Source of the DNA: a virus
Virus record (IMG/VR): IMGVR_UViG_3300045988_022552
Span: 1 to 5,039 of that record
DNA: 5,039 nt
Direction: 5' to 3' (one strand)
In this document: positions 1,590-5,039 of the stretch, in pieces
How the letters are laid out: every line of letters starts with the position of its first letter
Numbering within the stretch: the stretch's first letter is position 1
Position numbers and translations under genes: made by a program
The notes under the pieces: model-generated
What the model saw: the letters and a program-made list of their open reading frames with translations, nothing else
What the model was told of the DNA's origin: nothing
Databases searched by the model: none

Positions 1590-2414
1590 ATGACTACTGG
1601 TAAGGATGCTGCTCTGGTTCAGAGTGTGCCGGCTGTCGGAAACTTAGATTCTGCTCTTTCTCGTATTACCAGGACTGCATCAGAAAACACCGCTAAAAGC
1701 GCTCAGATGGCTTCTGACCAACGCGATTGGCAGGAGAGGCAAAATGCCCTTGCTATGCAGTTCAACGCTCAGGAGGCCGCTAAAAGCCGTTCTTGGCAGG
1801 AATACATGAGCAATACTGCGCATCAGCGTGAGATTCGCGATCTTAAAGCGGCCGGTTTGAATCCGGTTCTAAGTGCTATGGGAGGTAACGGCGCTGCCGT
1901 TACCTCCGGCGCTACTGCTTCTGGCGTTACTTCTGCTGGTGCTAAAGGCGAGGTTGATACTTCTGCTAATGCCGCTTTGGTTCAGATTCTTGGTTCTGTT
2001 CTTTCGGCGCAGACACAGCTTCAGACCGCTAATGTTAATGCTCGTACTCAAGAGGCCGTAGCCGACAAGTATACCGCTATGGAGAAGCTCGTCGCCCAGA
2101 TCGGCGCTGATGCTTCCAAATATAGTGCTCAGCTTGGTTATGCTGGCTCTAAGTATAATGCTAATATGCATTATTCTCTTGGTAAGTATCAGACTGATAA
2201 AGGATTTGAGAATCAGGTTTTTCTTGAGCAGAATTATCCTTCAAACTATGTTCAAGCTGTTAATTCTATTCTAAAGTCTCTTGGTTTTGATGTTACTGGT
2301 GGTTCTACTTCCGGTGAAGGTTCTGTTTCTGCTGAACAGTATGCTAAGCTCTTGGAAAAGTATAATGCTGCTCTTCTTGGTTCAGGTCCAAAACGTTCTA
2401 GGCATCAGAGATAA
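1590..2414 (+). CDS. VP2: VP2 minor capsid / DNA pilot protein (274 aa).
   Basis: The ATG at 1590 is preceded by GAGAGGTGA (SD) with a 4-nt spacer (GGTGATTTAATG). The protein is Ala/Ser/Gly/Gln-rich and carries the gokushovirus VP2 signature SWQEYMSNTAHQREIRDLKAAGLNPVLS (the 'MSNTA...AGLNP' block). It sits immediately after the VP1 stop, as in gokushovirus gene order. The ORF track starts it at TTG 1575, but the ATG at 1590 has the SD. Confidence 0.85.
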   Translation: MTTGKDAALVQSVPAVGNLDSALSRITRTASENTAKSAQMASDQRDWQERQNALAMQFNAQEAAKSRSWQEYMSNTAHQREIRDLKAAGLNPVLSAMGGNGAAVTSGATASGVTSAGAKGEVDTSANAALVQILGSVLSAQTQLQTANVNARTQEAVADKYTAMEKLVAQIGADASKYSAQLGYAGSKYNANMHYSLGKYQTDKGFENQVFLEQNYPSNYVQAVNSILKSLGFDVTGGSTSGEGSVSAEQYAKLLEKYNAALLGSGPKRSRHQR

Positions 2415-2416
2415 AG

Positions 2417-2458
2417 AAAACAGAAAGCTCCGGAGCTCTGCTTCGGAGTTTCTGTTTT
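2417..2458 (+). terminator. Rho-independent-type hairpin immediately after the VP2 stop: AAAACAGAAAGCTCCG / loop / CGGAG-TTTCTGTTTT, ending in a T-run.
   Basis: A 10-bp perfect outer stem (AAAACAGAAA/TTTCTGTTTT) plus a 5-bp inner stem (CTCCG/CGGAG) with a 1-nt bulge. The loop contains the palindromic GAGCTC. The 3' side ends in TTTT followed by GCC. Confidence 0.55.
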
Positions 2459-2496
2459 GCCTGCAAGCGTTAGCGCGCACAGCGAATAGATATGCA

Positions 2497-2516: not shown

Positions 2517-2520
2517 GACA

Positions 2521-2553
2521 CAGCCCCATTACTCTCTTGATGTAATGGGGCTG
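2521..2553 (+). promoter_or_regulatory. Perfect 12-bp stem / 9-nt loop hairpin (CAGCCCCATTAC tctcttgat GTAATGGGGCTG). It is a candidate viral-strand replication origin or packaging stem-loop.
   Basis: The inverted repeat is perfect, with no downstream T-run, so it is unlikely to be a terminator. The loop TCTCTTGAT contains CTTGAT, the same core as the phiX174 gpA nick site (ACTTG^ATATTAAT). Iterons sit immediately upstream. Confidence 0.4.
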
Positions 2554-2589
2554 AGTGACACCACGATAAGCAAAATGCTCTCTTTAGGT

Positions 2590-2640
2590 TATTGACAAGC
2601 TATGAATATATGATAAAGTAATGAATATAATAAACTGTAA
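2590..2640 (+). promoter_or_regulatory. AT-rich putative promoter region upstream of the micro-ORF and VP4.
   Basis: TTGACA at 2593-2598 and TATAAT at 2626-2631. These two hexamers are 27 nt apart, so they are not one canonical promoter; each would need a weaker partner hexamer. Composition is strongly AT-rich. Confidence 0.3.
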
Positions 2641-2649
2641 GGTGATTAA

Positions 2650-2757
2650 ATGAAAAATGATGATAAAGATAAAATGCTTGATGATTTTTGCCTACAGATG
2701 CTTTTGCTTGTAGGAGCTGGTGTTGCTCTACTTGTTATTGTTTCTTATTTCTTATGA
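2650..2757 (+). CDS. 35-aa micro-ORF encoding MKNDDKDKMLDDFCLQMLLLVGAGVALLVIVSYFL. It has a charged N-terminus followed by a single predicted transmembrane helix. It is a candidate small membrane or lysis-associated peptide.
   Basis: The ATG at 2650 is preceded by AAGGTGA with a 4-nt spacer (GGTGATTAAATG), nearly identical to the VP2 initiation context (GGTGATTTAATG). It lies in intergenic space between VP2 and VP4. It is not in the ORF track because it is shorter than 60 aa. Its 3' end overlaps only the weakly supported GTG-2720 extension of VP4. Confidence 0.4.
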   Translation: MKNDDKDKMLDDFCLQMLLLVGAGVALLVIVSYFL

Positions 2758-2794
2758 TGGGGATACGATATCCCCATACAAAGAAGGTGATTTC

Positions 2795-3808
2795 TTGCCA
2801 TGCTATCATCCGCTTAAAGCCTTTGTCTTAGGCGAAAAAGACGGTAAACGGTTGCTTAAGGTGACGTGCTATGAGATAGACCATCTTGAACGTTCTGGTG
2901 ATGGTTTTGCGTGTTGCACACATCCCGCTTATGGCCGTCCCGGTGATGTTACGGAGTTCATCGAAATTCCCTGTGGAAAGTGTTCCGGCTGTCGGCTTCA
3001 GAGATCGCGTGAATGGGCTAACCGATGTATGCTGGAGCTTGAATATCATAAGTCTAGTTACTTCGTAACGCTTACTTATGATGATGCTCACGTTCCGATT
3101 CATTACTATTCCGATCCTGTGACCGGTGAGGCTTTGCCGAGTATGTCTCTTGTGAAGCGTGATTTTCAGCTTTTTATGAAGCGTCTCCGAAAGAAATTTG
3201 GTGAAGGTATTCGTTTCTTTGCTTCCGGTGAGTATGGTTCAGAGACGTTTCGACCTCATTATCACGCTATTATTTTTGGTTTGGAGCTTAATGATCTTGT
3301 TCCTTATAAGCGTTCTGCTCAAGGTTTTCAGTATTTTAATTCCGCTTCTCTTCAGGATGTCTGGCCGTATGGCTATGCTGTTGTAGCTCCGGTGACTTGG
3401 GAGACCTGCGCTTATACTGCTCGGTATGTGATGAAGAAGCTTACTGGCCCTGAAGCTGAGTTTTACGAGAATTTTAATATTGTTCCTGAGTTTTCGCTTA
3501 TGTCTCGCAAGCCTGGCATTGCCCGGCAGTATTATGAGGATCATCCCGACCTATATGAACATGAGTTCATCAATATTTCGACGGAGAAAGGAGGAAGGAA
3601 GTTTCGTCCTCCGAAGTATTATGACAAATTGTTTGATCTCGATTGTCCGGAAGAATCTGCCAAGCTTAAGGCTGTTCGTCAGAAGATGGCAATTGAAGCG
3701 CAGAAAGCAAAACTACAGAAGACCACACTTAGTTATTTAGATCAGCTGGCCGTTGAAGAACGGAACCAGCTGGCCCGAATAAAATCATTAAAAAGGAGTA
3801 GTATCTAA
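2795..3808 (+). CDS. VP4: VP4 replication initiation protein (rolling-circle Rep of the HUH superfamily), about 337 aa. The start is probably a non-AUG TTG.
   Basis: Motif 1 FVTLTYDD (nt ~3062-3085). Motif 2 HUH as RPHYHAIIFG (nt ~3257-3277). Motif 3 catalytic di-tyrosine AYTARYVMKK (nt ~3413-3439), comparable to phiX gpA YVAKYVNKK. N-terminal Cys cluster: CYHP...CCTHP...PCGKCSGC (Zn-finger-like, nt ~2798-2996). The TTG at 2795 has AAGAAGGTGA with a 4-nt spacer, the same GGTGATTT context as VP2. There is no in-frame ATG before residue ~77. The ORF track begins at GTG 2720, where the SD spacing is only 3 nt and the extra N-terminus is low-complexity. Confidence 0.9.
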   Translation: MPCYHPLKAFVLGEKDGKRLLKVTCYEIDHLERSGDGFACCTHPAYGRPGDVTEFIEIPCGKCSGCRLQRSREWANRCMLELEYHKSSYFVTLTYDDAHVPIHYYSDPVTGEALPSMSLVKRDFQLFMKRLRKKFGEGIRFFASGEYGSETFRPHYHAIIFGLELNDLVPYKRSAQGFQYFNSASLQDVWPYGYAVVAPVTWETCAYTARYVMKKLTGPEAEFYENFNIVPEFSLMSRKPGIARQYYEDHPDLYEHEFINISTEKGGRKFRPPKYYDKLFDLDCPEESAKLKAVRQKMAIEAQKAKLQKTTLSYLDQLAVEERNQLARIKSLKRSSI

Positions 3809-3921
3809 TGCGTAAGAAAATGCGTCCCAAGAAAGATAAAAAGGTCTTTCGTCGTACTGCCGCTAAGTCCAAGAAGATCAACATTAACCCGACTGTTTTC
3901 CGAGGAGGTATTCGGTTGTGA
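3808..3921 (+). CDS. ORF8-like small highly basic DNA-binding protein (phiX J analogue), 37 aa: MRKKMRPKKDKKVFRRTAAKSKKININPTVFRGGIRL.
   Basis: The ATG at 3808 overlaps the VP4 stop (TAATG). AAGGAG (3793-3798) lies 9 nt upstream. Of 37 residues, 15 are K/R and only 1 is acidic (D). Its size and charge match gokushovirus ORF8 / microvirus J-type DNA-condensing proteins. Confidence 0.6.
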   Translation: MRKKMRPKKDKKVFRRTAAKSKKININPTVFRGGIRL

Positions 3922-4067
3922 ACTGTGAGTTTGCAGACGTTTGTGATCCAGTTTGTGAGGATTTTCCTGAATCTTGTCCGTTCTATTGTGAGTTTGCAGA
4001 CGTTTGCGATCAAGATTGTGAGGATTTTCCTGAATTTTGTCCGTTCTATAAGGAGTTGAAAGTATGA
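3918..4067 (+). CDS. Hypothetical 49-aa acidic, cysteine-rich tandem-repeat peptide: (M)NCEFADVCDPVCEDFPESCPFY CEFADVCDQDCEDFPEFCPFY KELKV. This is a speculative coding interpretation of the 63-bp repeat.
   Basis: The frame is open from 3888 to TGA 4065-4067. A GTG at 3918 is preceded by GAGGAGG (3902-3908) with a 9-nt spacer. The repeat unit is exactly 21 codons. The stop overlaps the VP5 ATG as ATGA, the same coupling architecture as VP3/VP1. One of the 4 inter-unit substitutions is a synonymous Cys change (TGT>TGC). Caveat: two other frames (one + frame and one - frame) are also open across the repeat, so openness alone is weak evidence. Confidence 0.25.
   Translation: MNCEFADVCDPVCEDFPESCPFYCEFADVCDQDCEDFPEFCPFYKELKV
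3924..4049. repeat. Direct tandem repeat of 2 x 63 bp (units 3924..3986 and 3987..4049), with 59/63 identity. Each unit contains internal GTTTGTGA sub-repeats and 3 TGTGA motifs.
   Basis: Read directly. Unit 1 is tgtgagtttgcagacgtttgtgatccagtttgtgaggattttcctgaatcttgtccgttctat. Unit 2 differs at 4 positions (tgt>tgc, cca>caa, gtt>gat, tct>ttt). Confidence 0.95.
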
Positions 4068-4827: not shown

Positions 4828-5039
4828 ACCGTAATGTTGAATCTCATTTCGCACTTAATCCCACGAACATTGATATCCGGCGCTCGACGTTTGACCGGTC
4901 GCATTCTCTTAAGACTTCGTTTAACGTTGGTGATATTGTGCCTTTTTTCCTTGACGAAGTATTACCGGGTGATACGTTCAACGTGGACACATCCAAGGTT
5001 GTGCGCCTGCAGACGTTGCTTACTCCGGTTATGGATAAC
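4824..5039 (+). CDS. VP1: Major capsid protein VP1, N-terminal part (MNRNVESHFALNPTNIDIRRSTFDRSHSLKTSFNVGDIVPFFLDEVLPGDTF...). It runs into the terminal redundancy and is in frame with feature 1..1578.
   Basis: The ATG at 4824 is preceded by AGGAGG (4811-4816) with a 7-nt spacer. The N-terminus matches the canonical gokushovirus VP1 start (SxFDxS...VLPGDTF). Positions 4941..5039 duplicate 1..99, so the frame is continuous with 1..1578. The ATG overlaps the VP3 stop (ATGA). Confidence 0.95.
   Translation, partial: MNRNVESHFALNPTNIDIRRSTFDRSHSLKTSFNVGDIVPFFLDEVLPGDTFNVDTSKVVRLQTLLTPVMDN
4941..5039. repeat. Terminal redundancy copy B (identical to 1..99). The implied unit genome length is 4940 nt.
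   Basis: The exact 99-nt duplicate of the window start begins at 4941 (ccttttttccttgacgaagtattaccggg...). Confidence 0.95.

Follow-up and report, generated by a model that had tools for sequence, protein, structure and literature searches.

A 35-residue membrane peptide is very probably encoded in the VP2–VP4 spacer of a gokushovirus that integrates at a short palindrome

In animal guts, gokushoviruses rank with the most abundant ssDNA phages. Lysis genes of small phages are normally translated weakly. Protein E of phiX174, an inhibitor of MraY, is 91 aa long, carries its helix at the N-terminus, depends on a proline and is encoded out of frame inside gene D. MS2 L (75 aa) and phage M LysM (37 aa) are lysis proteins of ssRNA phages and are encoded by overlapping, weakly translated genes. 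The exclusion proteins T4 Imm, HK97 gp15 and P22 Sie stem from tailed dsDNA phages and usually comprise at least 60 aa.

For gokushoviruses, no lysis gene has been recorded (PMC7062461; PMC3394797), and a search of the literature on gokushovirus lysis or a small hydrophobic gokushovirus protein returned nothing relevant. The EC6098 prophages of E. coli resemble the phage described here, being integrase-less gokushoviruses with a short site between a promoter-like element and VP4 (PMC7062461). EC6098 lyses E. coli and confers superinfection immunity (PMC7062461); such immunity is shown by gokushovirus carriers, and its mechanism is an open question (PMC7062461). The two phages differ in the site used. 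That of EC6098 is the 28-bp dif recognized by XerCD, whereas the phage described here has a 15-nt core, ATGGGG(A/G)TACGATAT, which does not resemble dif and is present several times in Oscillospiraceae DNA.

The stretch of DNA analyzed here (the window, 5,039 nucleotides) is a complete circular gokushovirus genome of ~4940 nt, bases 1–99 being repeated at 4941–5039 (Table 1). Its nearest relatives in GenBank, at ~88% identity, are unverified Microviridae genomes sampled from pigs, chimpanzees and humans. In the GenBank records of the relatives, the VP2–VP4 spacer, including the micro-ORF that is the subject of this work, is without any annotated feature. The preliminary description of this DNA had supposed that default annotation would miss the micro-ORF. 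This was true for the GenBank relatives but not for metagenome gene callers, which called the exact 35-aa product in 258 index blocks.

Table 1. Features of the window and peptides of the four cassette types (positions in the window; T1–T4, cassette types described in the text).
Feature	Position	Strand	Description
VP1	4825 across end to 1578		
VP2	1590–2414		
VP2–VP4 spacer			380 nt
Terminator-like hairpin and T-run	2425–2460	+	directly 3' of VP2; 12-bp stem, CTGTTTTG tail
Hairpin and flanking GTGACACCA motif	2518–2563	+	candidate replication-origin element; left edge of variable cassette
Promoter-like site, sigma-70/sigma-A type	2592–2619	+	TTGACA, 16-nt spacer, TG-extended TAAAGT; consensus match only
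SD of micro-ORF, AAGGTGA	2639–2645	+	4 nt 5' of ATG; AAGGTGA/GAGGTGA in all type-1 copies
Micro-ORF, type-1 cassette	2650–2757	+	35 aa; 13-aa acidic/Lys-rich N-terminus, then 22-aa C-terminal predicted TM helix
Palindrome, attachment site	2757–2777	.	ATGGGGATA-CGA-TATCCCCAT; 21 nt; shares one base with micro-ORF stop codon
VP4 SD AAGGTGA and TTG start (2795)	2784–2797	+	present 3' of host junction in all prophage copies
VP4	2795–3808		
VP8-like ORF			37 aa, Arg/Lys-rich, after VP4
Cys-rich ORF	3918–4067		49 aa, after VP8-like ORF, before VP5
VP5, then VP3			after Cys-rich ORF in gene order
Cassette T1			MKNDDKDKMLDDFCLQMLLLVGAGVALLVIVSYFL
Cassette T2			MLKIIAKLLGVLFLLGVVFPLVVLLIYSIWSQIL
Cassette T3			MKIMNIFTEIYKLSMKLLFIFLAITVIINMVLGS
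Cassette T4			MNIILKILAIIDLILFGYMSYKLIVAFQYIADALPSILALM

Translation from ATG 2650 to TGA 2755–2757 yields the 35-aa peptide MKNDDKDKMLDDFCLQMLLLVGAGVALLVIVSYFL. With the start context AAGGTGA-TTAA-ATG, the SD context of the micro-ORF matches those of VP2 (GAGGTGATTTAATG, 1578–1592) and VP4 (AAGGTGATTTCTTG, 2784–2797). Thus, coordinates, translation and SD comparison confirmed the 35-aa ORF with a strong, VP2-like SD that had been proposed earlier. The 13 N-terminal residues carry a charge of +3/−5 (three Lys, five Asp) and are followed by the hydrophobic segment C14–L35, after which there are no further residues. The previously reported architecture of a charged N-terminus and a hydrophobic helix therefore holds, but not the helix length of 19 residues, since the string quoted for it had 18 letters and the actual segment comprises 22 residues. 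The Kyte–Doolittle 17-residue maximum was 2.66, and AlphaFold2 predicted one unbroken helix at residues 4–34 (mean pLDDT 90). The PDB contained no match to the peptide, and an exhaustive HMMER search of 1.84 billion cluster representatives returned its own cluster only. As judged by these database searches, the peptide is without a homologue outside the phage lineage.

The layout of the spacer places the micro-ORF at the head of a transcription unit. The hairpin directly 3' of VP2 (DNA fold −14.5 kcal/mol, z = −5.2) is the best terminator of the genome on the + strand, is kept in relatives, and probably marks the end of the phage transcription unit. The second hairpin (−14.2 kcal/mol, z = −6.8) with its GTGACACCA motif shows 93–96% identity across dozens of gokushoviruses that diverge elsewhere (Dulem, bajarodmic, capybara, marmot and other viruses) and is a candidate for the origin or for a VP4 nick site. 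The promoter-like site that follows is the sole 10-of-12 match in the genome, has an extended −10 TG and is kept in all type-1 relatives. Transcription is predicted to start at ~2626, giving the micro-ORF a leader of ~24 nt. Since the micro-ORF begins 30 nt 3' of this best promoter-like site of the genome and has a consensus SD, it is the first cistron of a unit with the order micro-ORF, VP4, VP8-like, VP5, VP3, VP1, VP2 and terminator. No RNA family matched the spacer in Rfam at E ≤ 1. The supposedly non-coding spacer thus appears as a structured control region with terminator, ori-like hairpin, promoter, peptide gene and att site.

Two further observations concern variable DNA in these genomes. 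In one relative (L006, OP549876; positions 254–600), an extra insertion of ~280 nt lies between VP2 and the conserved hairpin and appears to hold a minus-strand ORF with its own SD. The Cys-rich ORF of the window consists of two tandem copies of ~63 nt (CEFADVCD..CEDFPE.CPFY twice) and is missing or of other length (52–55 aa) in close relatives; therefore, a second variable slot exists between the VP8-like ORF and VP5.

Selection on the micro-ORF was assessed with copies gathered from GenBank, IMG/VR and metagenome contigs, which comprised 17 distinct 108-nt haplotypes encoding 8 peptides. The summed pairwise pN/pS of the 17 haplotypes was 0.21 in frame as compared to 0.73 and 1.62 in the other two frames. 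Half of the site changes (15/30) were synonymous, compared with 22% expected (binomial p = 6.5e-4), and the window peptide was encoded identically by 8 DNA haplotypes differing at five synonymous sites only. Replacements in the helix were conservative (L/I/V, A/V, A/T, G/S, S/C), and length variants stayed in frame (a one-codon deletion in the acidic head; 3' extensions PDYL, PDFL and PEFL). When the 380-nt spacer was subjected to 5000 dinucleotide-preserving shuffles, 0.22% contained an ORF that began with ATG, had 30 aa or more and reached a hydropathy of at least 2.5, and 0/5000 contained such an ORF with an SD. It is very improbable that the micro-ORF arose by chance in a T-rich non-coding spacer and that its conservation reflects nothing but DNA-level signals (promoter, origin, att). 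Although the phage genome is T-rich, out-of-frame ORFs elsewhere in it look hydrophobic and the neighboring non-coding DNA is also highly conserved, the synonymous excess is specific to the micro-ORF frame, shuffled spacers rarely contained a comparable ORF and never one with an SD, the SD is present in all four cassette types described below, and these independent, non-homologous cassettes share one coding architecture. The chance explanation is thus largely refuted, and the micro-ORF is very probably a real gene.

Conservation in relatives, on which the preliminary description had made its proposal depend, was found for both the ORF and its frame, with two exceptions. First, the otherwise intact genome L184 (= L232) carries the nonsense allele Q16* (CAG to TAG). 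An in-frame ATG, that of M17, directly follows this codon in L184; therefore, reinitiation could still yield the 19-aa helix-only peptide MLLLVGAGVALIVIVYSFL. Second, the micro-ORF of L193 is truncated by an internal deletion that shortens the helix. Relatives lacking the att palindrome also keep the ORF, with 7 synonymous and 1 non-synonymous differences in L003 and 6 and 4, respectively, in L004. Since the ORF is under purifying selection in these att-less relatives, its function is not lysogeny-specific.

The region from the conserved GTGACACCA motif to the att/VP4 signals was then compared in every related contig, which gave 42 distinct versions. An SD-preceded hydrophobic ORF of 34–41 aa was present in 42/42 versions, the Q16* and the truncated allele included. 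The versions fell into four cassette types, T1–T4, that are unrelated in sequence. Frame-wise pN/pS was computed for T1, T2 and T3: the in-frame value was 0.11 for T2, while frame discrimination was weak for T3 (0.41 in frame compared with 0.61 and 0.80). Cassette type did not track VP4 similarity, as T2 and T4 genomes share 93–95% VP4 identity with the window and some T1 genomes just 87–88%; therefore, the slot is exchanged by recombination. At 53–60% VP4 identity, genomes with long VP2–VP4 spacers (250–440 nt) mostly carry yet another unrelated hydrophobic micro-ORF, which in L250, L267, L268, L269 and L274 abuts or overlaps the VP4 start and leaves no space for an att site. Thus, a syntenic small hydrophobic ORF between VP2 and VP4, as the earlier work had envisaged, was found throughout the clade and mostly also in distant long-spacer genomes. 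It was absent from distant genomes with spacers of 100–190 nt, and at most two of seven diverse GenBank genomes had a weak candidate. The hydrophobic spacer micro-ORF is recurrent among gokushoviruses, not universal.

Downstream of the micro-ORF, the palindrome ATGGGGATACGATATCCCCAT (hairpin z = −4.75) coincides with the point of integration. In more than 30 contigs, among them L009–L011, L171 and L196, the phage genome is integrated in bacterial DNA at this palindrome; samples with integrated copies include ERZ28565113 and ERZ28594624. At right junctions, phage ...GATACGATAT, a phage end also given as ...TGATGGGGATACGATAT, is followed by host DNA. At left junctions, host ...ATGGGGGTACGATAT is joined to CCCCATACAAAG; followed up to VP4, bacterial ...GTATGGGGGTACGATAT joins CCCCATACAAAGAAGGTGA-TTG of VP4. 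The common core with the bacterial site comprises 15 nt (2757–2771), and crossover occurs before C2772. Judging by these junctions, the palindrome is the phage attachment site. The phage genome is without an integrase.

Four different right flanks were found among the integrated copies, the commonest lying upstream of an SLH-domain protein gene. In another, the junction is ~700 nt from the adenylosuccinate lyase gene (purB), next to adenylosuccinate synthetase (purA), and the lyase product is named Oscillospiraceae in NCBI (L012 4299–5717; right flanks of L010/L011). This one named flanking protein suggests a Gram-positive Clostridia host. Such a host would be unusual, as to our knowledge the known hosts of Gokushovirinae are Gram-negative or wall-less. 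The unoccupied att site with both flanks was found in L196 and L013, and the host genes of the left flank are directed away from VP4 (gene table of L013).

The att site of Oscillospiraceae DNA is itself repeated (GTATGGGGGTACGATATCGCC). Its bacterial copies share at least 60 nt of flank and are inverted around a 1.6-kb segment holding a 103-aa ORF and HSP20 (L013, positions 5110 and 6697; L171, 5209 and 6797; L196, 14432), and 7.6 kb separate an empty site from an occupied one. The arrangement may reflect a locus, either invertible or repeated, that lies 5' of paralogous SLH-protein genes.

Several candidate explanations of the integration site were rejected. XerCD/dif integration was dismissed, as the 15-nt core does not resemble consensus dif and a host locus contains more than one copy of the site. 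A 16-mer scan of genome contigs gave chance matches only, with a phage-region match that was at best 26 nt and borderline (L029). A 410-aa tyrosine integrase gene lies beside the micro-ORF in L013, but it was rejected as the att recombinase, being part of a ~60-kb Caudoviricetes prophage with its own att core. This tailed prophage (L013 3512–5110; L303–L309), whose integrase has a zinc ribbon and whose att core reads ..AAGTTTCTAT up to the crossover, sits in the −10 box of the gokushovirus prophage and leaves the micro-ORF and att end adjoining the integrase gene in the 61.7-kb contig L013. For the same reason, namely that the tailed prophage had simply inserted into that −10 box, the micro-ORF was not considered native to the integrase element.

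The junctions also fixed the start of VP4. Initiation at GTG 2720, which would make the micro-ORF region VP4-coding in another frame, had been raised as one objection to the micro-ORF. It is excluded because integrated copies are bacterial upstream of 2772, and the pN/pS values of the other frames (see above) do not agree with it. For the same reason, TTG 2795 has to be the VP4 start codon. Alignments with VP4 relatives begin at the first residue encoded from it, and in L140 and L184 the TTG is replaced by GTG. The micro-ORF reading therefore stands.

As a consequence of the site used, the integrated state separates VP4 and all other genes from the promoter-like site, while this site and the micro-ORF remain together at the right prophage end; in each of more than 30 integrated copies, the right junction has both on its prophage side, promoter activity being predicted. 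The arrangement suggests, on sequence grounds, that splitting the promoter from VP4 and the structural genes silences the prophage without a repressor. In one integrated lineage represented in at least three samples (L012 2454–3279, L014, L015), VP2 is split by a frameshift near residue 51–54, and the micro-ORF is intact and the same as that of the window. By its broken VP2 frame, this lineage is probably a decaying prophage. In the enterogokushovirus prophage of E. coli (L301, 6213–6295), a TTGACA-18-TATGGT element lies directly 5' of dif, and no hydrophobic micro-ORF is present in the slot. As the same promoter-site-VP4 layout exists there without a micro-ORF, the cassette is an insertion into the sole slot that is still on the promoter in a lysogen.

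In a purely regulatory role, translation of 2650–2757 would control how the mRNA folds or how ribosomes gain access at the att hairpin and the weak VP4 TTG, and the peptide would be functionless. The hairpin overlaps with the stop codon and precedes the VP4 TTG by 38 nt, and in distant lineages the micro-ORF abuts VP4. Such a regulatory uORF is nevertheless improbable given the purifying selection at the amino-acid level with conservative helix replacements, the hydrophobic helix in all four unrelated cassettes, and the retention of ORF and promoter by prophages in which no VP4 follows. Quite improbable, too, is a type-I-toxin-like addiction or abortive module that stabilizes the prophage or carrier state and whose translation is restrained by antisense RNA or mRNA structure. 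The type I toxins Fst, TisB, Ldr and Hok are of similar size with a single helix, the micro-ORF occupies one end of the prophage, and on the antisense strand a weak promoter-like site runs from 2656 to 2627. However, that site is a 9-of-12 match and no better than shuffles, no Rfam family matched, and the leader of only ~24 nt leaves the strong SD exposed, whereas the mRNAs of type I toxins have long structured leaders.

The preliminary description had proposed a lysis or membrane peptide, naming a holin or antiholin, an MraY/MurJ-type inhibitor and superinfection exclusion as options without deciding among them. Selection, in-frame indels, the SD, the promoter-like site and the cassettes uphold the second part, a real gene for a single-pass membrane peptide; a lysis role was not established, the evidence pointing both ways. 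If it were a lysis effector resembling single-gene lysis proteins or holins, the peptide would accumulate in the membrane to a dose that follows replicative-form copy number. Above a threshold, either lesions would collapse the proton-motive force and unleash host autolysins or a membrane step of wall synthesis would be blocked, and the single copy of a prophage would stay under the threshold. This is consistent with a 4.9-kb genome that has no peptidase, no E homologue and no other lysis candidate, with a cassette in every clade member, with continued selection in the att-less relatives, and with distant lineages in which hydrophobic micro-ORFs are coupled to VP4. Moreover, four unrelated sequences with one architecture represent the pattern of holins and levivirus lysis proteins.

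Like phiX174 E, the micro-ORF product is a small single-helix membrane protein of an endolysin-less microvirus. It differs from E in that it has 35 aa, a C-terminal helix (14–35) without proline and a stand-alone, promoter-proximal gene in the intergenic region with a strong SD. Its compatibility with MS2 L and LysM is one of architecture only: they, too, are very small and have a hydrophobic C-terminal helix behind a polar N-terminus. Between related phages, sequences turn over extremely in both cases. The micro-ORF product differs from the levivirus proteins in having no motif or profile match and in staying on the predicted promoter in the prophage. No family was found for the 35-aa peptide in Pfam-A at E ≤ 1, PHROGs or NCBIfam, phiX174 E included, and cassette types 1–4 matched no holin family of Pfam, PHROGs or NCBIfam. 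An endolysin gene was not found near the micro-ORF, nor was a peptidase or muramidase called in any relative.

Further points speak against lysis. Lying next to the promoter and having a strong SD and an ATG start, where VP4 has TTG, the cistron is at odds with the weak translation normal for small-phage lysis genes. No other phage gene is still on the promoter in the prophage. The micro-ORF is intact in the defective VP2-frameshifted lineage, and Q16* is found in a genome that is otherwise intact. Enterogokushovirus, which has no such micro-ORF, lyses E. coli, most short-spacer gokushoviruses have none, and no lysis or holin family matched. Action as a lysis effector is thus less likely than not, but it comes close in probability to the reading preferred below. 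Of similar probability is the proposal for the clade as a whole, namely that the hypervariable 34–41-aa cassette is the missing lysis function of these Oscillospiraceae-infecting gokushoviruses and that integration serves as a regulator-free lysis/lysogeny switch. Here, genome copy number would set the peptide dose and hence the lysis time, and att integration would silence VP4 and keep the peptide at a harmless single-copy level. Since any membrane-perturbing peptide would suffice, the four unrelated alleles would be explained.

The reading preferred here, if tentatively and at somewhat less than even probability, is a membrane peptide that is made early and from the prophage and serves to exclude superinfecting phages or to modulate the envelope; a role as dedicated lysis timer has a lower probability. 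The peptide would insert as a tail-anchored single helix, an N-in/C-out orientation being suggested by three N-terminal lysines and the lack of C-terminal charge, and it may self-associate via the small-residue face G22-A23-G24/A26. Production would begin early in infection and be continuous from the prophage, making the peptide an accessory factor at the cytoplasmic membrane. It might, for example, hinder the VP2 pilot protein of an incoming phage in delivering the DNA.

In favor of such a prophage-expressed peptide, promoter and micro-ORF stay joined in the prophage, and the peptide is unchanged in the VP2-frameshifted lineage from at least three samples. Its accessory nature is supported by Q16* in the otherwise intact L184, by the independence of cassette type from VP4 similarity, and by the lack of such an ORF in most short-spacer gokushoviruses. 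Like T4 Imm, HK97 gp15 and P22 Sie, the candidate is a short membrane protein with its own promoter, located by an att site, predicted to be expressed in the lysogen and replaced in a cassette-like manner. However, PHROGs and PADLOC showed no homology of the peptide to exclusion or defense proteins, and PADLOC models did not match any of the four cassette types. Four unrelated peptides for one specific job are less parsimonious than mere membrane damage, and no member of the clade lacks the cassette, whereas exclusion genes usually have a patchy distribution among genomes. Furthermore, the att-less relatives L003 and L004 keep the ORF under purifying selection, the distant analogous ORFs abut or overlap the VP4 start with no space for an att site, and EC6098 is immune without such an ORF.

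With respect to gokushovirus biology, integration in the spacer mechanically uncouples the replication gene from its promoter. If the lysis proposal were true, a 4.9-kb phage would possess a regulator-free lysis/lysogeny switch. In many deposited microvirus genomes, a gene under selection goes unseen because of the length thresholds used in annotation. Both the mode of lysis and carrier immunity are open questions for gokushoviruses (PMC7062461), and the micro-ORF is a short, synthesizable candidate for a lysis or exclusion function, for which natural variants are at hand in the form of four interchangeable cassettes, a nonsense allele, a truncated allele and att-less relatives.
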